From a virus (lineage: Duplodnaviria > Caudoviricetes): a stretch of DNA of 64,000 nucleotides. Each line of letters begins with the position of its first letter. The first letter of the stretch is position 1. Made by a program: the position numbers and the translations under genes. The stretch lies in the IMG/VR virus record IMGVR_UViG_3300029305_003084. One strand, given 5' to 3'. The notes beneath the pieces are model-generated. The model worked only from the letters and a program-made list of their open reading frames with translations, was not told where the DNA came from and ran no database searches. Below are positions 4,178-61,901 of this stretch, one piece after another.

Positions 4178-5785
4178 ATGCAGATTAATATTAATAAAAA
4201 TAGAATTTTACAAGCAAAAATTACACCTAACATGATTATTCAGGAACATTGTAATCGGGTATGTAATAACCCCACACCTGTTAACATTTCTGAATTCATG
4301 TTAAATTTTAAATCACTCCCTAGACAGACTATTTTAGAAAATCTGTCATGTTTATATAAAATCAATACAAAGCAATCTATTAGTTTTCTAAATCATATTT
4401 TAGAAAATTCTAATCTTTCTGAAGAACAGTTACAAGAATATTCTTATCATATAAAAGAATATATTCTTGAAAATGATATGGATGAATCATCTTATGAAGA
4501 TACTTTTAAATTAATTGAAAATTTAATTCAGGATACAGATAATATTGAAAAGATCAAAGAGTCAATTAAGTATTCTCTTGCATCTGATAGATTTACAAAG
4601 CATTATGCTTGTGAATCTTATTATCTAGATACTGAATTAGATATTATTGCTTATAATATTAATTACAATCCTGAGACAATTACACAGTTAGAATTATTAT
4701 TAAGAAAGATTAAGATGTCAAAAGGTGCTGAATATTTTAATGAATTCCCTGGTCTATTAGACAAATCAACAAAAATGATTTGTAATATTGAAATGAATAT
4801 GACTGGTGATGTATTAGAATTGGTTACATCAGTACCTATTGTAATTGCTGAAAAATTATCAGAATGTAAAGTTCCTCCTACTCAGGCAAAGAATTTTATC
4901 CGATTAATTGATAAGCAAATTATTACAATGACTAAGACATTAAAAAATAATGCAGGAACTCAATATAATTTATATTATTCCTATTTACAGTCTTTGCAGA
5001 AAGCAAAAGAAATTCTTACTAATAGAACTACTACCAAGGTATTAGAACACATTGCTGAAATGCAACCCGATGTTATTTATTCTGATGGTGTATTAGAAGA
5101 TATTGCTGCTGAAATTGAAGATTCTTTAGTCGATATTTTCTATGATCCGGAATCAGAAAATGATATGAAAGTAATGGAAAATTTCTATAAACTTTCTATG
5201 AAATATACTAATTTATTAGAAGCTAAAAATACCGGTGTAAGTAAAGGTGTTCGAAATGCTGCTAATAAAGTAGGTAATGCAAATAGAAAAGTTGCTAATA
5301 AAGTAGTTGCTAAAGCACATGATAGTGCTAGGGTAAAAACTACAATATCAAAATCTTTTGATCCTCTTGTTAATCTTATTAATAACACAGTGAATAAGAT
5401 TAAAGAACAAGACAAAAAAGAAAGAACTGACCGTATAGTTACTGGACAGTTTAGTTTTAAATTAAAGAATGTTATCAAAAAGGGTATTGGTGCAATTGCT
5501 TTATTTACTGTAACAAAAGGTGTTGTTGCTTCAGCAGTTAATCCTCTTGTTGGTGCAGTAATTGGTGCAATTACATTATATGCTGCATTTGGTAGAGATA
5601 GAAAATTAGATAGAAAAACAAGACAAAAAGTCATAAAAGACTTAGAAGAAGAATTAGTTATTGTCAATGAAAAAATTGATGATGCTAAGGGTGATGGTGA
5701 TAAGCAGGCAAAATACCAGCTTATGAGAGTTCGTTCTCAACTAGAACGTGATATTGAACGAATTAAATTCCATCTTGATGAGTAA
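4178..5785 (+). CDS. Virion (probably head) structural protein
   Basis: Late promoter AACA-N6-TA at 4133-4144, RBS before ATG 4178; first gene of capsid operon; basic C-terminal half with hydrophobic stretch after an LLEA motif. Confidence 0.55.
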   Translation: MQININKNRILQAKITPNMIIQEHCNRVCNNPTPVNISEFMLNFKSLPRQTILENLSCLYKINTKQSISFLNHILENSNLSEEQLQEYSYHIKEYILENDMDESSYEDTFKLIENLIQDTDNIEKIKESIKYSLASDRFTKHYACESYYLDTELDIIAYNINYNPETITQLELLLRKIKMSKGAEYFNEFPGLLDKSTKMICNIEMNMTGDVLELVTSVPIVIAEKLSECKVPPTQAKNFIRLIDKQIITMTKTLKNNAGTQYNLYYSYLQSLQKAKEILTNRTTTKVLEHIAEMQPDVIYSDGVLEDIAAEIEDSLVDIFYDPESENDMKVMENFYKLSMKYTNLLEAKNTGVSKGVRNAANKVGNANRKVANKVVAKAHDSARVKTTISKSFDPLVNLINNTVNKIKEQDKKERTDRIVTGQFSFKLKNVIKKGIGAIALFTVTKGVVASAVNPLVGAVIGAITLYAAFGRDRKLDRKTRQKVIKDLEEELVIVNEKIDDAKGDGDKQAKYQLMRVRSQLERDIERIKFHLDE

Positions 5786-5798
5786 GGGGTGAAAATTC

Positions 5799-6422
5799 GT
5801 GGCAATATTTAATTTTAGGAAAAACATATTATTAGAAGCTGAAAAAGAAACTATTGAAGTGGAAGAAAATGACAATGTCGATTATACCGAAGATGTAGAA
5901 ACTCCTGAAGATACTGAAACCACAGACGATGAAACTCAAACTGAAGAAGAACCAACTGATGATACAGAAACAGATGAACCTGTAGAAGATGAAGGTACTG
6001 ATGAAGGTGATGATACAACAGATTATACTGAGGATATCACAGATGATACTGCTGGTACTGATGATATGACTGGTGAAGAATCTCCTGAAGAAACATCAGA
6101 AGAACCTACTACTGAAGAACCATCTGAAGATGATATCAAAAATGCAAATTTATTAAAAGATATTATTACATTATATTATGAAGTTATTAACATAACTAAT
6201 AAGATTGATAATATTATTGATATTAATTTTGATGTCAACCAAGTCTGTGTTAAAGTAAAAAATAATTTAACTACTTTAAATGAGTACCTTTATGATTTAG
6301 TAACAGGACCATTTAAAACAAATACATATGTTAAAAATTTATATATCTATCAATATGCTCTTGAAATTGTTAAAATAAACATAGAAATGTTTAGAAATAT
6401 CAAAGATTTCAATTCTATGTAA
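5799..6422 (+). CDS. Acidic head-assembly (scaffold-like) protein
   Basis: About 95-aa D/E/T-rich low-complexity tract; immediately upstream of putative MCP. Confidence 0.45.
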   Translation: MAIFNFRKNILLEAEKETIEVEENDNVDYTEDVETPEDTETTDDETQTEEEPTDDTETDEPVEDEGTDEGDDTTDYTEDITDDTAGTDDMTGEESPEETSEEPTTEEPSEDDIKNANLLKDIITLYYEVINITNKIDNIIDINFDVNQVCVKVKNNLTTLNEYLYDLVTGPFKTNTYVKNLYIYQYALEIVKINIEMFRNIKDFNSM

Positions 6423-26909: not shown

Positions 26910-29153
26910 TTAATAACCTTCGTTTGAATTATTACCGGATTTATTTATTTTTGACTCAGCATCTTCTTTTGCAAGTTCTAATTTGGCATTTCTATATTCT
27001 TCATCTACCATAGTCCAATCAATCATAGGTAACATTTTACGGAATAGTCTATTGTATAGTCTATCCTTTAATCTATTATCATCATTAGATTGATCAGCAG
27101 ATTCACCAGTAGATGCTTTAATTGCAGCATTAACAACAACATCTGTATTATTAATTAAGTCACCTAAGTTGTTAGTATTGAGTGTCTTAGGAGTATTGAA
27201 TTTAAATTCAAAAGAATCGATAGCTTCCTCAGAAATACTAATATTAGAATGCTTAATTAATAATTTATATAATTGAGTAGTGGGTTCATTTAAGTCAATC
27301 TGAAGACTAATGACACGAGCTAAGAATTTTGAGTTTGCCATAACAAGGGTTTTTGCGTAATCTGCCTCATTAATGAAATTCATAATGACTGAAGGACAAC
27401 CAGTACCATTTACCATGTTCTGATGTAACATTTCCATTAAATCAGTATTTAAAGGAATATCTTGACCAGATAAAATGTCAAATTCAATACCTCGTTCACC
27501 ACTACGACCAGTAGGAATAAACAATTCTTTATTAGCACCAATTTTTGAAATAATTGAATTATAATTCAATAAGTCCATAAAATTAATTTGTCTACCCTTA
27601 ATAGATCTTGCAACTTCCTGAACTTTATTCGTGATATTTTGATCAATGCCACTATTTTTAATATAATATACACGAGTATCATTACTCTTAGTAATAATAC
27701 TAATCATTTTAAATACTAATAATGCTAGATATAACTTAGCGTAAAATAATGAATCCTTTAAAATAGATTGACCTTCACCGTTTTCATCCTCATTAATATT
27801 GTATTCTACAACATATTCTGCAGGAATGAATTGGAATCGTAATTCTCTTTTATATAGATCATTATACATTAGAGCATTTAAAATGAGTTCTTTAAACTTA
27901 GCATTAGTTTCTAAGAATTTTTTATCAAAAGATTTTACAATTTTATCTGTAATTTTAGATAAGAATACGGTTTCAATATCCTCTGTATTCTGATATGTAC
28001 CACTACCACCTCTTATATTAGTTACAGTAATTGTAGTAGAAAAAGGTGATTTGTTAATCTGGAAATCAGTACCATGTACGTAATAATAACCAATAGTAGT
28101 ATCTAAAATTTTAACAGGAATCATTTGTCTTGGATCAATATATTTAATATAACATCCAGAATATTCATCGAACTTATCAGATTTAGTCTTTTTTGTGTTA
28201 TTTAAATCAACTGTACCGTCTGATGTTGTTGGTTCAAGATTTTCAGTATATTCTGATGTTTTCTTTTTAAATTGTCTATGATCCATTAATTCAGCTAAAT
28301 CGACACCTTCAATTAAAGGAATTGATACACAATCATTAATGACATTAATATCTTTTGTAATATCATTAACAGTTTCTGTTAATGATTTTTCATTAATATT
28401 TGTTTTACTAATAACATCATCAGATCTCAATGACTTAATGAAATCGTCATCAATAGACTCTTTTACATTAAACATGTAGTGTGGATCTTTATTTTTTTTA
28501 TCATATTGCTCTTGGAAAAGTTTAGAATATGGACATACATATACATAGTATTTACCATATGTCAAAACATTAGGAACAATTTGATTTTTTATCTTAGTCA
28601 ATAATTTAAGCTTCTTTTCTAAAGTTTCAATTGTATTGACATATGATGCTTGTTGCTCTGCATTATCAATTAAATTAGAGAATGATAAAGTTCGTGAAAC
28701 ATCATTTGATATATCATCAGCAGTAACAATAGCATCTCGGAATGATAATACTGCTTCTTTCAATTCAAACAACTGAGTTTTAATCATATTTAAATCTTCA
28801 TATAAAAGATTCTGATTCTGATATCGTTGTTGGAAGAATTGGAATAACCCTGCTTCATCATTTTCAAAAATATCGTTGATTGTTTTTACATTCGACTTCT
28901 CTTTATTATCAAAATCATTAAATAATTTAACAATAAATGTACTCATCTCATCCGAGGTAATACTCTTAGTATTGTTAATCTCATTTTTAATGATTTCATC
29001 AAAATCTCGTGAAATTTGATTTATTTGACGCTGGTTTCTATTATCTGTTCCATAGATATTAGAAGATAATGTATCGATAGATTGATTGAATAGATTATTC
29101 AATCCAATTATTTTCTTTTTTGACTTCTGTTCGTCTTTATTTTCTTTAGCCAA
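26910..29153 (-). CDS. Portal protein
   Basis: IITKSNDTRVYYIKNSG...ELFIPTGRSGERGIEFDILSG matches T4 gp20-type portal motifs; TTG start at 29153 after AGGAGG; late promoter 29196-29207. Confidence 0.7.
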   Translation of the reverse strand: MAKENKDEQKSKKKIIGLNNLFNQSIDTLSSNIYGTDNRNQRQINQISRDFDEIIKNEINNTKSITSDEMSTFIVKLFNDFDNKEKSNVKTINDIFENDEAGLFQFFQQRYQNQNLLYEDLNMIKTQLFELKEAVLSFRDAIVTADDISNDVSRTLSFSNLIDNAEQQASYVNTIETLEKKLKLLTKIKNQIVPNVLTYGKYYVYVCPYSKLFQEQYDKKNKDPHYMFNVKESIDDDFIKSLRSDDVISKTNINEKSLTETVNDITKDINVINDCVSIPLIEGVDLAELMDHRQFKKKTSEYTENLEPTTSDGTVDLNNTKKTKSDKFDEYSGCYIKYIDPRQMIPVKILDTTIGYYYVHGTDFQINKSPFSTTITVTNIRGGSGTYQNTEDIETVFLSKITDKIVKSFDKKFLETNAKFKELILNALMYNDLYKRELRFQFIPAEYVVEYNINEDENGEGQSILKDSLFYAKLYLALLVFKMISIITKSNDTRVYYIKNSGIDQNITNKVQEVARSIKGRQINFMDLLNYNSIISKIGANKELFIPTGRSGERGIEFDILSGQDIPLNTDLMEMLHQNMVNGTGCPSVIMNFINEADYAKTLVMANSKFLARVISLQIDLNEPTTQLYKLLIKHSNISISEEAIDSFEFKFNTPKTLNTNNLGDLINNTDVVVNAAIKASTGESADQSNDDNRLKDRLYNRLFRKMLPMIDWTMVDEEYRNAKLELAKEDAESKINKSGNNSNEGY

Positions 29154-29262
29154 AACTAGTACCCTCCTTTTCAACCATCTATCTGCATATTAATTTATAT
29201 AGATGTTTAAATGATGCATAAATACTAAAAAAATAAAAGCGGGAAATAAATCCCGCTTTTAT

Positions 29263-29871
29263 TTAAAATTTAATACACTGATAGATATGGTTAGATACTA
29301 ATACTTTTCTATCAACTTTAATATGCATACGGAATACATTAGAAAGTGAATCGTCATAAAAGCGAATTTGTACTTTATGAGATTTCTTTAATCCTGGAAT
29401 TATTTTTCTAGAAATTCTAGACATATATTGGTCACATTTAAGATCAAGAATCTTATTTTTTGTTAAATCATAAATGTCGTCTTCACTTAAATTGATAATA
29501 TAGTGAGATTCATTGAATTGTTGTACAAATGTAAGCATTCTTATACATGACCAATCATATTTATTTAATTCAGCAAATGTATATCCAAATGGTTTATTAT
29601 TAATATAGAACATTTCGTTCTTATATTCATATTCACTGATATCTTTTCGTCCAGTTTTTAATAATTCATATAAATCTCTAGAGTCAAAGCCTTGAATTAC
29701 AGGTTCATTATATAAATTAAATCCACAATCAATATAATGCTTACCAATAAGATTATTATCACCAATGACAAGATTATTATTCATAAACATGTAGTTATCA
29801 AATATATTCTTTGCCTCTTGATTAAAGTCATAGATTTGTTTAACTTGTCCTTTTACGAAATTAATTTTCAT
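29263..29871 (-). CDS. Hypothetical protein downstream of DNA polymerase subunit
   Basis: ORF with RBS; terminator 29233-29262. Confidence 0.55.
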   Translation of the reverse strand: MKINFVKGQVKQIYDFNQEAKNIFDNYMFMNNNLVIGDNNLIGKHYIDCGFNLYNEPVIQGFDSRDLYELLKTGRKDISEYEYKNEMFYINNKPFGYTFAELNKYDWSCIRMLTFVQQFNESHYIINLSEDDIYDLTKNKILDLKCDQYMSRISRKIIPGLKKSHKVQIRFYDDSLSNVFRMHIKVDRKVLVSNHIYQCIKF

Positions 29872-29883
29872 ATAATTGCCCTC

Positions 29884-32000
29884 TTATTCAATATCAATTT
29901 CAATTGGATCACCAATAAATAACTTCTTTACATAATCAATAATGAATCTCTTTCTAGGTTTGATTTTAAATTCTTTACGGAAATCTTCTTGTACGGTATT
30001 AACATCAGGAAGATTAAACCATTTATGAGCAACAGAAAGTACATCTCCCGTTAAATAGTTATCCATAAAGTCTTTACCACTATCATAACCCATATTTAAA
30101 GTATTAACTTCATCTTCATCATCTTCGTCATCATCATTATCTACTCGATCAACAATCTTATCATCAACAAACATATGACCATAAGTGTCTTCAGTTATAC
30201 TAGGAATAATTAATTTACCTATCATACTACAACGTTCAATATTATGTGCAATGATAATATGCGGATACATCGAGCTGAAATCCATATCGATAACATTATC
30301 GAATACATACATTGAAGGCATACCGAATAATTTATATCCAGTATGTGAATTTAGTAAGGGATTACCAACCACCGCACCAGTGAAGCCACTTTCTGCATCA
30401 GGAGTAAAAATATTGACATTATTACCTAGTATATATCCTTGCAAAATATATTCATAATAAGCCCTTGACTTGAGCATCGTTTATGTTCACATAAGGTCGT
30501 TAATCTTATGCCGTTCTCTTATGAACTGCTATATGTTACCATATAGACCAGACTATATCATCATCTCAATATTGAGATGTCTCCCATTTCCACTCACTTG
30601 AGTGTACGTCTTTCGACTAGTCGTTGAACCTTCTCTTATGATTAAGAGCTTGGCTGCTGATTGTCTCAATTGAGAGTTTCCAGCAATTAAAGAGATTTGC
30701 AATATATGTCACCATATAATGGGTCTATACATTAAACCGTTTCTTTGAATATATTATCAGGACTTGTACAGTTTGCACTAAAACGAATATATAAATTTTC
30801 TATATCATTTACCTTTCGCTCAATGCCCATCTGTAATAAGGTATCCTTAATGTTATAAGCAACAAACTTGCGATAATTAATATAAGGAAGTGTTTTAATA
30901 TTTGCTTCATCGGTATAGTCAAGCTTTGTATCTTTTAATTCTTTTTCTGCTATATAATTAAGAGCATTAGAACGAAGTTCCATTTGTCCTTTTCTTGTAG
31001 CAGCATAAAGAATCATTTGATCAATAAATTTTGTATATCCAGATATTTTAAAACTGGAAGATTTATTTTTAACTGCATAGTTTTTTGTATCAATATGCAT
31101 GTTATATTCTTTATATCTGAAATCTGGATGACACATTACACTAGTTGGATCAAGATTTAATACCTTTAATCTTTCAATAATATATGGAAGGTCAAACCCA
31201 AATCCGTTATACACTAGACAATAATCACGTTTAAGAGTATTAATCAATCGAAACACATTTATGATAAGATCTCTCTCATCATTATACATATATATCTTAT
31301 AATCTAAATAACCATAAGACTCATCAAACATATCATGTAACTCAACTACAAAATTATCAATATCAGCAACAAATTCTTTAATTAATGGATTATTTTCATT
31401 ATTTAAAAGGAATGTATAAACTGTTTTTCCTTCATCATCAACAACTGATACTGCATTGATTGGACATTCACCTTTTGTCGGAACACCAATATGATCAATG
31501 ATATCAACCTCGATATCTAGATATGTCTTTGTAATTGGTTTATTTAAATCATTTTCATAATTCAAATGCCACATGATTCGATACCATGTATCAATTGGTA
31601 TATCTGAACCAAATACATAAGGATATGATTGAATTCTAGATAATTCCCGATACTGTTTTGTATCAATCAATCTTTTTAGTTCATTTACATACTCTTCACC
31701 TGCTTGTTTTGCAATATACCAGGGAAGACCTTTAAATTGACAAGTGTGTTTTTCACATTTCGAAATTTCCATATGTGTCTTATTATATGTATAATTTCGA
31801 TATTCATTTTTTAAGAAATATATTTCTATTTCAGGATTCAAAATACTTTTTAAGTGTTTTTCTCCTGTTTTTAAATCTTTATATATAATATCAATACAGT
31901 CTACTCTATCATTATCTTTATTTGGTCTATGATAAATTACATCTAGTAACATAAGAGAATCTTTATTTGGTATGTTTCCTAGAAAATCCATACAATACAC
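29884..32000 (-). CDS. Family B DNA polymerase, N-terminal subunit (3'-5' exonuclease + motif A), spliced: exons 32000-30735 and 30477-29884
   Basis: ExoI LDIEV, ExoII YNGFGFDLPYI, ExoIII YNIKD, motif A DMDFSSMYPHII; in-frame join ETV|MLKS. Confidence 0.88.
30478..30734 (-). mobile_element. Group I intron 3 (DNA polymerase), ORF-less, 257 nt
   Basis: GGTT|...GACC P1; conserved cores; ends ATAAACG. Confidence 0.9.
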
Positions 32001-32080
32001 ATCCTTCTATAAGAAAGTTATAATAAAGTTTATGGCTTTATAACTATATAATATATATTTGAAAATGAGATTAAAAATAA

Positions 32081-32119
32081 AAAAATAAAAGGATAAATAT
32101 ATTTATCCTTTTATTTTTA
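32081..32119. terminator. Terminator closing array 1 transcript
   Basis: AAAAATAAAAGGATAAAT-AT-ATTTATCCTTTTATTTTT; T-run on minus strand. Confidence 0.7.
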
Positions 32120-32120
32120 T

Positions 32121-33783
32121 TAATTCATTAATAGACCATGAAACTATTTCATAAAATGATTTTATTTATATCATTCCCTCTTATTGATACTATCATTATC
32201 AATGATTCATTTTTTTAATAACTGATACAAATACACTCCCATGATTCATTCTGTTCTCATGATACTATGAGTTAGCTTGATTTATTTTTCATCACATGAT
32301 ACTATATTTCTCGATGATTCATTTATCCTGATGTGATGCTTATATTTTTTAACTTAATTCATTCCGTTCTTATGATACTATAAAACGGGACGATTCATTG
32401 AATTAATTTTGGTACTATCAATGACATGATTCATTAGTACTACATGATACAGTTATGTGAAATGATTCATTAGTAAACTATGATACTTTACATTAATTTG
32501 ATTTATTTAATATCGTATTTTACTATGATTTCAATTTGTTACTCATGACTCATTCTTTGGTAAAGATACTATCATATACGTATGATTCATTCTCCTTTTA
32601 TGATACTATTGAAATGATATTGATTTAAGCATTAATGAAATTTGTTACTATGTATATTGCACTCTGATTCATTAAACGGTTTTGATACAATTTTTTTCAT
32701 ATTGATTCGTTTCAGCGTTATGGTACACTCAGTAAATCTGATTCATTTTTATAATATGATACAATTATTATTATATGATTCATAAATACGTCCTGATACT
32801 ATTAATATGGATGATTCATTACCTCACGATGATACTATTTTTGGAACTGATTCATTGTAATTTTGATACTATACTTATCCATGATTCATTTCAACACTCT
32901 GATAATATTGGACCGCCATGATTCATTTAATTACTATGATACTAATAGCTTCGTATGATTCATTAATATCCTCTGTTACTGTTATGATATATGATTCATT
33001 ACATCACCGCGATATTATTGTGACATATGATTCATTAAGTTAATTTTGTTACTATCAACGACATGATTCATTTATCTTCAATGATACTATAATAGAACAT
33101 GATTCATTAATACTACATGATACACTTATGTAAAATGATTCATTTATGTTATATGTTACTATATAGTTGAATGATTTATTTAATACGTTTTATTTCCTGG
33201 ATTCTATATACTTATATGACTCATTCTTTGGTAAAGATACTATTCTATACGTCTGATTCATTCTAATACTATGATACTATATATTTTAATGATTTAAACA
33301 TTATATGAAATTTGTTGCTATATATTTATTGCACTCTGATTCATTCCATTCGTTTGATACAATTTCCCTTGTTGATTCATTTAAGCGTTATGTTACACTC
33401 AGTAGATCTGATTCATTTTCACAATATGATACAATTTCGTTATATGATTCATTCCAACTCTCTGATACTATATAAGATGTTTTGATTCACATTACCCTGG
33501 ACTGATACTATTTTTCTTTTGTTGATTCATTGTAATTTATGATACTATATCTATCCATGATTCATTAGGTTCCTATGTTACTATTATGGGATTTGACTCA
33601 TTCATTTTTATGAAACTTTTCTTGACTTAGATTCATTCAACTTTCTGGTACACTTCAAATATGCTTTGATTCATTTTGTTTCAATGACACTATATTATTC
33701 AATGATTCATTAATTCAAATTGATACGATTCCTCCATATGATTCATTTACTGATATTGATACTAACACCTTTCCTGATTTATG
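32121..33783 (-). ncRNA. Array 1: about 45 x 36-bp dual-repeat/dual-spacer units (TIGR-like)
   Basis: Plus strand TGATTCATT-N9-TGATACTAT-N9 repeated; I count 45 TGATTCATT-like boxes; no ORF; own promoter at 33786-33803 and terminator at 32081-32119. Confidence 0.8.
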
Positions 33784-33825
33784 ATTATAATATATAATTG
33801 AAAATCCTTTTTATTTTTATAAAAT

Positions 33826-33864
33826 AAAATCTATCCAAGTATAAAAATATACTTGGATAGATTT
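33826..33864. terminator. Terminator separating 33876..34358 from array 1
   Basis: AAATCTATCCAAGTATA-AAAA-TATACTTGGATAGATTT. Confidence 0.7.
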
Positions 33865-33875
33865 ATAATAAATAA

Positions 33876-34358
33876 TTAAATCTTAACAGTACCAGTAGGC
33901 TTCTTAGGTAGCTTAACGGGTGCATTAAACTGAGCCTTTGCTTTATCAACAGCCTTCTTAACAGTCTTAGACTTAGAATTAGCTGCCTTAGCAACAGACT
34001 TCTTAGCACGACGAGAACCTTCATTACCATACTTCTTCTCTAGCTTAGCTTCTAGGAAACGTTCCATTTCCCAGATCTTCATTAGCTTCTTGAAATCAGG
34101 ATCATTCTTTTCCTTAGCAATAGTGAAGATTGCCATCTTACGTGCCTTGCTTAGCTTAGCTGCCTTATCTAGACGAACGATAGTACGTTCTAGTAGAACA
34201 TTCTCTTCCATAGCTGCAGACTGTTCAGTCTCGCTTTCTAGGAACATAGAAATATCTTCTTCAGGTAGATCGGCGATCGCTGCCTCTATAATATAAGCCA
34301 TAGCCTCATTGCTGATTGCTTCTTCTTCAACGATACGACCTGTGTTATTAAAGATCAT
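33876..34358 (-). CDS. Abundant late (internal head?) protein, acidic N-terminus and Lys/Ala-rich C-terminus
   Basis: Late promoter 34388-34399; capsid-like codon bias (CTA, AAG). Confidence 0.6.
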   Translation of the reverse strand: MIFNNTGRIVEEEAISNEAMAYIIEAAIADLPEEDISMFLESETEQSAAMEENVLLERTIVRLDKAAKLSKARKMAIFTIAKEKNDPDFKKLMKIWEMERFLEAKLEKKYGNEGSRRAKKSVAKAANSKSKTVKKAVDKAKAQFNAPVKLPKKPTGTVKI

Positions 34359-34520
34359 TTAAGGGCACATCCTTTCTGTATCATAATTATATATTTGTTT
34401 ATTGACTTATTTATCTATAAGTTTTCTTTACATTTTTGTTTTTTATTTAGTTTACAACAATTCAACAAAAGAAAATTTAAATATATATTATATATGTATA
34501 ACGACGAAAGTGGTGATGTT

Positions 34521-36449
34521 ATGGAACATTCGTTCATAAAAGAATGGAAAAAAGAAAATTATAAAATTCTTCATAGAATGTATCCTGAAGTATCTAAAAA
34601 AGAAATTAATAAATTTTTAGATAAAGAGGTTAAAAAATATTTAAAAAATCCTGATTGTGAAATTGATAATAACTATATTGGTAAAACAATTAAAACAAAT
34701 CTATTATCTGTAATTGATTGGATTAAAGATACAAAGCCAATCTGTGCTGGTCATGGTGTATTCTTTAAGAATCAACATGAAGTGATTAGTCCATTGGCTA
34801 TTATGATTCAGAAATTCCTTACATCAAGAAAAGCATTTAAAAAACGATTAAAAGATTTCGATCCTACATCTTATGAATATGCAACATTTGACAGAAAACA
34901 GTTAGCTGAAAAGGTCAATGCAAATGCTATTTATGGTGCATCAGGTAATGTTGTATCGTTCTTATTTAATATGTATACTGCTGCATCTGTTACTGGTAGT
35001 GGTCAGTCATTAATTAGTACAACAGAGCAAGCTTTCGAAGGATTTCTATCAAATAATGTTATATTCAATTCAATTAATGAGTGTTATACGTTTTTAAATA
35101 ATATTCTTAGTGAAAAATATGAAATGAATATGTCATTTTTAAGAAATGTTGACCATGATAAATTAATTAAACGATTAAGTGATATGTTTTATCGAGTAAC
35201 AAATGATGATATTAATAGTATAACTGAATTTGTATGTAATTTATCTCAGGAAGAAATTAATAAGATTTATTATAAAAATAATCTTTATGAATTTTCGATG
35301 CATCCTGAAATATTAGCATTATTAACTAATATTGTCCGATATACAGAAGAATTTAAAGACCCGAATGAGATTCCTGAAGAGTCTGAAGTATATTTAAGTA
35401 AGCTTTGGTCATATTATAAACAGTTTGTATTATATAATCATTCACCGATTAATAGAATCCAAAGATTGAAGAATGACACTAGAAAAACTGTTTTAACAAT
35501 TGATACCGATAGTAACTTCTTACATCTTGATCCTTGGGTTCATTTTATGTATAATAATGTAATCAAAGATGATTATAGATGTGCTGATAAGGATATTGAT
35601 ACATTAAAATTTATTTCAGTTAATACAATGGCATTTTGTATTACGAATATGATGAAAGAAGTGTTGGGTAAGTATACTGCTGATGTAAATATACCTAAAG
35701 ACTATCGTCATTTTATTAATATTAAGAACGAATTCTTAATGTCTAGAGTTATTCTTGCATCTAAAAAGAAAAGATATATTACGTCAATTCGACTTAGAGA
35801 AGGTAGTGAAATTTGGCCAGAAAAGCTAGATACAAAGGGAATGGATTATATGAAATCTACCACTCCAGAAAATGTTAAGGCCAGATTTGAATCTATTATT
35901 AAAACTAGATTACTTGAATCAAAAGAAATCAATCCTGCATTGATTATTCAAGATCTAGCTAAGTTCGAAAAAGAGATTATTGATTCTTTAAAGAATGGTG
36001 AAAAAGAATATCTTATTCCTAAATCCGTAAAGGAGTTAGAAGCATATGCCGATCCATTTAAAGAGCAAGGTGTTCGAGCAATTGCTGCATGGAATTATAT
36101 TTATCCTGATCAAGAAATTAGATTACCTGCAAAAGTTGATCTTGTTAAATTATTATTAACGGATGAAATGGATTTAGAAAAATTAAAAAATGTAAATAGA
36201 GAAGTATATGAAATTGTAAAAGAAAATATTTTCAATAATCCTAATGAAAAAATTGCTAATAAGGGACTAGCAGTATTAGCAGTTCCTAGAAATATTGAGA
36301 AATTGCCTGAATGGACTGTACCATTTATTGATTATGATACAGTCACTTATAATATTTTAAAGAAATTTTATCCTGTATTAGAATCTGTAAACCTAGAAAC
36401 AATTAAAACTTCTGGTAAAGAGTATTACTCGAATATATTAAATATATAA
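34521..36449 (+). CDS. Family B DNA polymerase, C-terminal subunit (motifs B and C)
   Basis: SRKAFKK...Q..EKVNANAIYG, TGSGQ, IDTDS, KKKRY, KGMD; ATG 34521 after early promoter and RBS. Confidence 0.88.
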   Translation: MEHSFIKEWKKENYKILHRMYPEVSKKEINKFLDKEVKKYLKNPDCEIDNNYIGKTIKTNLLSVIDWIKDTKPICAGHGVFFKNQHEVISPLAIMIQKFLTSRKAFKKRLKDFDPTSYEYATFDRKQLAEKVNANAIYGASGNVVSFLFNMYTAASVTGSGQSLISTTEQAFEGFLSNNVIFNSINECYTFLNNILSEKYEMNMSFLRNVDHDKLIKRLSDMFYRVTNDDINSITEFVCNLSQEEINKIYYKNNLYEFSMHPEILALLTNIVRYTEEFKDPNEIPEESEVYLSKLWSYYKQFVLYNHSPINRIQRLKNDTRKTVLTIDTDSNFLHLDPWVHFMYNNVIKDDYRCADKDIDTLKFISVNTMAFCITNMMKEVLGKYTADVNIPKDYRHFINIKNEFLMSRVILASKKKRYITSIRLREGSEIWPEKLDTKGMDYMKSTTPENVKARFESIIKTRLLESKEINPALIIQDLAKFEKEIIDSLKNGEKEYLIPKSVKELEAYADPFKEQGVRAIAAWNYIYPDQEIRLPAKVDLVKLLLTDEMDLEKLKNVNREVYEIVKENIFNNPNEKIANKGLAVLAVPRNIEKLPEWTVPFIDYDTVTYNILKKFYPVLESVNLETIKTSGKEYYSNILNI

Positions 36450-61082: not shown

Positions 61083-61121
61083 AAAAAAGACAGATAGAAA
61101 ATTTTCTATCTGTCTTTTTTT
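61083..61121. terminator. Bidirectional terminator closing array 2 transcript
   Basis: AAAAAAGACAGATAGAAA-A-TTTTCTATCTGTCTTTTTT. Confidence 0.75.
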
Positions 61122-61124
61122 ATT

Positions 61125-61376
61125 TTTCCCGGATGATACTATGAGCGTCCTTGATTCATTTTGATACTGTGATACTCTATGTAAAGTTGATTCATTAGGA
61201 ATCCCTGATACAATTTTTTAGATTGATTCATTGTTGCCACATGATACTATCTGAAGAACTGATTCATTCCTTATCCTAGATACTATAACATGGGTTGATT
61301 CATTTTGACGTTCTGATACTATAATACGAGCTGATTCATTCCATATGTATGATACTATGTGAACACTTGATTATGT
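61125..61376 (-). ncRNA. Array 2: 7 x 36-bp dual-repeat/dual-spacer units (TIGR-like), exact 18-bp register
   Basis: Same two 9-mers as array 1, 14 distinct 9-nt spacers, no indels. Confidence 0.8.
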
Positions 61377-61814: not shown

Positions 61815-61901
61815 TGATTGAGAAGGATCATAGAAAATATTCTAATTATTTCCTTCTTTATTATGATTATAATATATATTTGAAAGTGTTGACTTTACGA
61901 T
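61815..61901 (-). repeat. Duplicated promoter + structured 5' leader (second copy 14477-14562)
   Basis: About 86 bp near-identical between the two loci. Confidence 0.85.

Follow-up and report, generated by a model that had tools for sequence, protein, structure and literature searches.

A very long dual-repeat TIGR array, remote from tasA, as the probable largest guide library of an AR9-like jumbo phage from animal guts

The virus record IMGVR_UViG_3300029305_003084 (Duplodnaviria; Caudoviricetes), of which a stretch of 64,000 nucleotides (hereafter, the window) was analyzed, carries an array of short alternating repeats at window positions 32121–33783 on the minus strand (genome positions 85402–87064). 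We interpret this region, with a probability of about 0.8, as a dual-repeat TIGR array that, within the TIGR-TasA system of an AR9-like jumbo phage, forms the largest library of guide RNAs. A TIGR-type dual-spacer array had been proposed in a preliminary description of the window, and this reading is now supported by the array geometry, the truncated array ends, the finding of a TasA protein, and the co-occurrence of the repeats with TasA homologues. The TIGR-Tas family is already known, having been described in 2025; the locus adds to it a remote, promoter-equipped and very long array, variant box motifs, early-promoter control, and unit-wise turnover.

Dynamic (chain) parsing of the minus strand from window position 33783 to 32121 yielded 91 repeats and 45 units, in agreement with the approximately 45 tandem units described earlier. 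Each unit consists of the edge repeat AAUGAAUCA, spacer A (N9), the loop repeat AUAGUAUCA, and spacer B (N9). The edge consensus, AATGAATCA, is exact in 59 of the 89 copies present genome-wide, and the loop consensus is ATAGTATCA. All attributes of the dual-repeat type (two alternating repeats of 8–12 nt, spacers of about 9 nt, and a 36-nt unit) were found. The alternation of two 9-mers with short spacers noted previously is real, but the layout is less regular than was described: 58 of the 90 spacers are exactly 9 nt long, with the others ranging from 5 to 19 nt, and 41 of the 91 repeats are perfect. The core 8-mer ATGAATCA occurs 29 times inside the 1.66-kbp array and 36 times elsewhere on the same strand of the 247-kbp genome, mostly in four sister arrays. 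The array is non-coding, as had been stated, since no open reading frame (ORF) longer than 57 aa overlaps it; ORFs on the minus strand over the array were missing altogether, and no repeat-encoding ORF is present at the locus. An Rfam scan of positions 29000–35000 revealed a group I intron only, leaving the array without a match, and the RNA of the array body is no more structured than shuffled sequences (z 0.56). The first 780–1,027 bp of the array were found at 100% identity in eight contigs from other samples, and a 1,996-nt contig from another run covers the entire array with zero differences; therefore, the array is not an assembly artifact.

The genome contains five arrays with the same two repeats, comprising 89 units, and the array of 45 units is the largest of them. 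The sister array at 57.8 kbp of the genome (window 61116–61376, minus strand) runs, in seven clean units, from the stop codon of a 130-aa ORF to a terminator. Two others, with 8 and 12 units, are located at 153.2 and 226.2 kbp, respectively, and the fourth, with 17 units, occupies positions 207.7–208.4 kbp on the other strand, directly downstream of tasA. All five arrays start with a 5'-truncated AATGAATCA (..AATCA) and finish in a 3'-truncated or degenerate edge repeat; in the 45-unit array, these are CAUAAAUCA and AAUGAAUUA, respectively. It is these truncated ends that show which repeat is which: AAUGAAUCA is the edge and AUAGUAUCA the loop repeat. A terminator hairpin follows four of the five arrays, including the one studied here, and is missing after the 153-kbp array. 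The arrays span 170 kbp, and 72 of the 89 guides are more than 15 kbp away from tasA. Neighbors of the 226-kbp array (genome 224750–229128) are a gene resembling RNA polymerase beta' and two genes for HNH/NUMOD4 homing endonucleases.

The only tas gene of the genome, tasA, encodes a protein of 477 aa (genome 208593–210026; positions 4594–6027 on the minus strand of its piece, L018). A phmmer search against PDB matched it to TasR (9MTY, E-value 2.3e-15) and TasH (1.5e-10), and a profile of 60 TasA homologues matched TasR at 8.7e-32, TasH at 2e-19, and the IS621 recombinase at 2e-8. In the AlphaFold (AF2) model, residues 1–300 had a predicted local distance difference test (pLDDT) score above 90, and the top 11 PDB matches of the model in Foldseek were all TasH or TasR chains, with IS110-family recombinases next. 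The sole Pfam match was a weak one to Transposase_20; nuclease domains were not detected, and neither HNH nor RuvC would fit into the short N-terminus. PF02371 has one match in the genome, and TasA was found with this family and the PDB searches rather than with the Nop family PF01798, a model blind to TasA that had no match in the phage genome even at an E-value of 10. Because the protein matches TasR and TasH in both sequence and predicted fold and has no nuclease domain, it can be identified as TasA, with a predicted Tas/Nop fold devoid of a nuclease. The element that carries the arrays thus encodes one Tas protein with a Nop domain and a coiled coil. According to published data, TasA acts as an RNA-guided repressor of transcription (10.64898/2026.09.09.750476). 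The finding of TasA in the genome favors the RNA-guided system suggested in the preliminary description, but the array is not self-contained, being one of five for a single TasA.

The 260 TasA homologues found are mostly 265–320 aa long. Residues 300–477 of the phage protein form a C-terminal extension of about 170 aa, common only to two close relatives. It is predicted to be mostly disordered, and the terminal 55 residues are modeled as a folded alpha/beta domain (pLDDT 96), for which comparison with PDB folds revealed nothing clear (best Z 4.3, small phage inhibitor-like proteins). Between an early promoter and tasA there is an ORF of 61 aa (genome 210095–210280; L018 positions 6096–6281, minus strand), which opens with MAKLT, as does TasA, and resembles a copy of the first TasA helix. 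Another ORF, of 64 aa, extends over the 3' end of tasA; ahead of the tasA-adjacent array, there is a 20-bp hairpin.

The exact repeat pattern was found in 11 other IMG/VR contigs. A TasA homologue with 40%–57% identity was present in 9 of 10 tested contigs with these repeats, and the exception is 62% complete. In most relatives, the arrays adjoin tasA or are located within 17 kbp of it. In one relative, G009 (IMGVR_UViG_3300029305_003110), with tasA at positions 121216–122010, the sole array detected by pattern search comprises about 34 units at approximately 9.1–10.4 kbp; it is 112 kbp from tasA, and none was detected beside the gene. This array is syntenic with the 57.8-kbp sister array, and the flanking ORF is 63% identical. 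Among 50,697 GenBank phage records, relatives of TasA were found only in Salicola phage CGphi29 and one Microcystis phage. Searches for related loci with TasA or the PolB exonuclease part singly returned none or only distant ones. A single exact 9-mer spacer is common with the relatives; it has a different partner spacer and corresponds to the chance level.

The array appears to be a dedicated transcription unit, as previously proposed. The sequence TTTCAATTATATATTATA at window positions 33786–33803 on the minus strand, precisely where a promoter had been noted, is an early promoter motif of the AR9 type (virion RNA polymerase). As TTTCAAWTATATATTATA, the motif occurs 48 times in the genome versus 2 times for the reversed control, nearly always preceding genes. 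The motif at the array agrees with the AR9 early consensus used by the virion RNA polymerase, AAATATATATTAT-(6N)-+1 (PMC5312081). With the 6-nt promoter spacing of AR9, transcription is predicted to start at about position 33780, at the A within the truncated first edge repeat. At the other end, the terminator reported at 32081–32119 was recovered as an intrinsic terminator at positions 32072–32118 (minus strand), consisting of a 17-bp hairpin (32118–32081) and a U run (dG −15.2 kcal/mol, z −4.5); none of 200 shuffled sequences folded equally well. The upstream gene for a 160-aa protein has its own terminator at 33827–33864 on the minus strand (dG −22.1 kcal/mol, z −9.0). Together, these signals indicate that the array is probably an insulated transcription unit shielded from upstream read-through. 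The early-promoter motif also heads the tasA operon and is present in the same orientation upstream of all four other arrays, and a scan for sigma-70 promoters gave no signal higher than in shuffled sequences. Several early promoters are parts of near-identical modules of about 50 nt, composed of TAAAGTCAACAC, the promoter, and AATCATAATAAAGAAGGAA with a ribosome-binding site (for example, at window positions 61885 and 14545 and genome positions 33163, 231623, 237485, and 238921), which suggests a repeated promoter-leader cassette.

The genome itself is a 247,146-bp IMG/VR virus record rated complete, with a GC content of 28.8%. PolB shares 35% identity with its AR9/PBS1 counterpart, and a piece of RNA polymerase beta' matches phiR1-37 and Staphylococcus and Bacillus jumbo phages. 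Runs with the stretch came from animal feces and bovine gut metagenomes of 14 studies, and its presence was confirmed in two of them. Since the likeness in PolB and RNA polymerase beta' is accompanied by the AR9 early promoter motif, the virus can be classified by its sequence as an AR9-like jumbo phage, as had been inferred before; it is uncultured and comes from animal guts.

Several observations weigh against the assignment of the region to a guide library of TasA. The first is the location of the array 122 kbp (121.5 kbp) from tasA, under its own promoter, since published arrays are described as adjoining tas. The array under study does not have such a neighbor; the sister array with identical repeats does adjoin tasA downstream. 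The published surveys covered 5–10 kbp around tas (PMC12045711; 10.64898/2026.09.09.750476).

Next, the box motifs depart from the canonical ones. The dual-repeat frame of TIGRFinder comprises a 3-nt box C, a 9-nt spacer, a 2-nt box D, and a 4-nt gap. In this frame, box C is UCA in both repeats instead of CCA, and box D, instead of UG, is AA (edge repeat) or AU (loop repeat). The preliminary description had recognized the boxes as variant, but its "UGA...UCA" was shifted relative to the published frame. Positions A1, G4, A6, C8, and A9 are common to the edge and loop repeats. An A2-U7 pair replacing the canonical G-C is possible in 77 of the 89 edge copies, and positions 2 and 7 of the loop are mostly U-U. 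Among the loop repeats of the relatives, G2 is accompanied by C7 in 12 of 15 cases (such as AGAGUACCA); the same frame is seen in the published SpTIGR repeats, which were read from NC_020844 as AAGACAACCA and AAGCGAGCCA with 8-nt spacers. Although the letters are non-canonical, the frame and some of the base pairing are retained. According to the published description of TIGR, box motifs can diverge.

The third point concerns processing. SpTasH cuts its own precursor using Y289 and H296 (PMC13421893). In a BLASTP alignment, H296 corresponds to TasA H286, which is invariant in 60 homologues, and the catalytic Tyr289 corresponds to Phe279. Because of this replacement, the precursor could be cut by either TasA or a host RNase. 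Moreover, no transcript or 36-nt RNA of the array was obtained: in two bovine-gut metatranscriptome runs, a tenth of the sampled words was present, and the contigs covered only positions 33892–34415, at the upstream 160-aa gene, although such contigs cannot show absence elsewhere.

In addition, no target was found in the phage genome, in four related jumbo phages, or for four single guides in public collections. The published target is 18 contiguous bp with 8-nt 3' overhangs; therefore, the target strand should consist of spacer A and then spacer B in reverse complement. A search of 53 units with 9+9 spacers against the masked genome of the phage, in both orders and with up to 3 mismatches, yielded no exact hits, and the hits overall did not clearly exceed those of re-paired controls. 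Strict units of five phages of this group had no exact match in all five genomes (1.34 Mbp), and matches with 1 mismatch were at the control level. Four 18-mers compared with public collections had 3 and 0 viral, 5 metagenome, and 13 genome matches in unrelated taxa, with no second guide near any of them. Single guides cannot name targets because about 17 chance matches per 18-mer are expected in 596 Gbp. An excess of paired-spacer matches over controls, proposed earlier as a check of the guide reading, was thus not observed in the phage, its four relatives, or the four guides searched in public collections, and this result does not refute the reading. Spacers A and B showed no relation indicative of palindromic targets, and spacer GC as a clue to the targets was inconsistent across the relatives. 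A guide of one relative matching early promoters was rejected as a false unit derived from an AT-rich intergenic stretch. The system is not self-regulatory through perfect matches, and host DNA or competing mobile DNA, rather than the phage itself, is its most likely target.

The state of the array raises a further doubt. Units with 9+9 spacers and no more than one mismatch per repeat, considered canonical, number 12 of 45, and 21 of 45 have 9+9 spacers at all; the corresponding counts of canonical units are 11 of 17 in the tasA-adjacent array and 5 of 7 in the 57.8-kbp array. The earlier picture of the array should be corrected in that only about a quarter to a half of the units look canonical. 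The array is a mix of canonical and degenerate units, many of which, judging from their sequences, may be non-functional. The GC content of its spacers, 0.28, equals that of the genome, compared with 0.43–0.44 in the two cleanest arrays, and is compatible with drift. These features, along with the imperfect repeats and spacers of uneven length described above and the lack of 19 units in a related strain, could be explained if the array were a largely decayed relic that has kept its promoter and terminator, with most units providing no working guides and the phage relying on the 57.8-kbp and 208-kbp arrays. We consider such decay improbable, although it is the most credible of the alternatives. 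The promoter and terminator are intact, the first 1 kbp is identical in eight other samples, at least 12 units are still fully canonical, and the repeats are far more conserved than the spacers.

The last point follows from a diverged tandem block duplication inside the array and from differences between strains. Copy 1 (14 units, window 33036–33566, minus strand) and copy 2 (13 units, 32399–32890, minus strand) are 91% identical in repeats and 61% in spacers, and one unit has no partner. Of the 13 unit pairs, seven keep both spacers (identity of at least 0.70), in six both spacers are at background, and none is mixed; the chance that 12 independently replaced spacers would fill exactly six units is about 2 in 10,000. 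Copy 2 is inside a 703-bp stretch (32216–32918) that is missing, together with its 19 units, in a related strain represented by a contig from run X7, where 23 other letters are found instead. The same strain also lacks one exact 36-bp unit (32985–33020). Of its 11 listed single-nucleotide polymorphisms (SNPs) over 635 bp, 10 are in spacers and 1 in a repeat (binomial p about 0.006), and the latter restores the repeat consensus. Both the divergence of the block copies and the distribution of SNPs indicate that the repeats are under purifying selection relative to the spacers. The array has grown and changed via block duplication and via replacement, gain, or loss of whole 36-nt units. In the relative G005 (IMGVR_UViG_3300045988_113656), the tasA-adjacent array of about 2 kbp (190.8–192.8 kbp) carries one unit in two copies (191261 and 192764) separated by 1,503 bp; therefore, block duplication within arrays recurs in this group.

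Two other explanations are far less plausible. The array could be a DNA-level element in which motifs phased by 18 bp serve as protein-binding sites (iterons, a centromere, or an origin) instead of transcribed guides. Its position between the two PolB genes, one for the exonuclease and one for the catalytic part, fits this possibility, and the 18-bp phasing of the shared A..G.AUCA core could in principle be read as DNA sites. On the contrary, the five arrays are alike in their orientation to an upstream early promoter and have truncated edges at both ends, these repeats are found together with TasA, a Nop-fold protein that binds RNA, and neither the alternation of two repeat types nor hypervariable 9-nt spacers is a feature of iterons; the downstream terminator also counts against a DNA element, though the 153-kbp array has no terminator hairpin. 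Guides for box C/D sRNA-like RNA modification or targeting, or for an effector other than TasA, would agree with the Nop fold shared by Tas and box C/D RNP proteins and with the non-canonical box letters, but are just as improbable, given that fibrillarin was not found in a search of the phage genome, which also has no Pfam Nop match, that the RUGAUGA/CUGA K-turn boxes are absent from the repeats, that TasA groups with DNA-targeting Tas proteins in sequence and fold, and that published Tas proteins are inactive on RNA substrates.

The region is best compared with known dual-repeat TIGR systems. Like FpTIGR of Flavonifractor plautii and the TIGR-TasA system of the repressor MbTasA (PMC12045711; 10.64898/2026.09.09.750476), it has two alternating repeats of about 9 nt, pairs of 9-nt spacers, and a 36-nt unit. 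The TIGR-TasA systems (PMC12045711) further share with it the truncated edge repeats that bound the array, a terminator beyond them, unstructured array RNA, and a solo Nop-fold Tas protein without a nuclease domain. The differences, in addition to the remote location and the UCA and AA/AU boxes, are the presence of five arrays per TasA, the 170-aa C-terminal extension of TasA, and the length of the array, 45 units, whereas published arrays have "most often 5 to 15" units.

The SpTIGR-TasH system of Salicola phage CGphi29 (NC_020844; PDB 9W03/9W04) is likewise phage-borne and has a dual-repeat array with the same frame of box D, 4-nt gap, and box C. The Nop cores of SpTasH and TasA are 26% identical (E-value 1e-17), and the catalytic His296 of the former aligns with the invariant His286 of the latter. 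Unlike TasA, which has no nuclease domain, SpTasH has an HNH nuclease and cuts DNA; SpTIGR also differs in its 8-nt spacers, AG/CCA boxes, the array directly behind tasH, and Tyr289 in place of Phe279. TasR of the TaTIGR-TasR system (PDB 9MTY), the best PDB sequence match of TasA, shares with it the coiled coil, the Nop fold, and the conserved C-terminal loop H-x-x-H-V, but this system is archaeal, has UG/CCA boxes, and its TasR carries an N-terminal RuvC nuclease.

CRISPR arrays are also transcribed repeat-spacer arrays that provide a protein effector with many guides, and orphan CRISPR arrays remote from effector genes are known. Their hallmarks, a single repeat of 23–47 nt, spacers about 30 nt long, cas genes, and an adaptation module, were not seen here. 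Two 9-nt repeats with 9-nt spacers bear out the earlier statement that the geometry is not that of CRISPR, and none of the 18 scanned proteins flanking the arrays and tasA matches a Cas family in Pfam. Archaeal box C/D sRNAs with Nop5, fibrillarin, and L7Ae resemble tigRNAs in two short guides flanked by boxes bound by a Nop-fold dimer. Here, in contrast, there is a tandem array without K-turn boxes, fibrillarin was not found (L7Ae was not searched for), and the target, by homology, should be DNA.

The array is flanked by the PolB exonuclease gene on one side and the PolB catalytic gene (34395–36449, opposite strand) on the other. The gene for the exonuclease domain, downstream of the array (29884–32000, minus strand), contains a group I intron at 30529–30744 (Rfam RF00028, 110 bits), beyond which there is an additional PolB piece (29884–30477). 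This intron is about 80% identical to introns in Staphylococcus, Enterococcus, Bacillus, and Vibrio phages. The lysine-rich 160-aa ORF directly upstream of the array (33876–34358, minus strand) has no match in Pfam, and an identical copy of this protein is recorded on 20 contigs.

Based on published TIGR-Tas work, the system could operate as follows. Early in infection, the virion RNA polymerase would transcribe the array into a precursor of about 1.7 kb. Dimers of TasA would bind the box motifs, and the precursor would be cut within the edge repeats to release 36-nt tigRNAs. Each tigRNA would guide TasA to a contiguous 18-bp DNA site composed of spacer A and the reverse complement of spacer B, which TasA would bind without cutting, thereby blocking transcription or replication. 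A broader scheme, which we put forward tentatively, is a distributed guide library in which five promoter-equipped arrays serve one TasA, are driven by the virion polymerase at the start of infection, and silence host or rival DNA. In this scheme, the unit-wise replacement (seven pairs kept, six replaced, none mixed, and the 36-bp indel between strains) could be a footprint of guide renewal by edge-to-edge cassette exchange rather than by insertion of single spacers.

These findings bear on the questions of the natural targets, the biological role, and the guide acquisition of TIGR-Tas systems. Internal duplication and strain differences provide evidence at the sequence level for change by 36-nt units and blocks with repeats under selection, and the early virion-polymerase promoter on the arrays and tasA assigns the system to the very beginning of infection. 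Cultured AR9-like phages, as represented in the GenBank phage records searched, offer no model for this TasA; therefore, an experimental system would need heterologous rebuilding. Arrays can be far from tas, so surveys limited to 5–10 kbp undercount guides and may call loci arrayless. Remote arrays of this kind, like the sole one detected by pattern search in G009, could explain the published "arrayless" tas loci.

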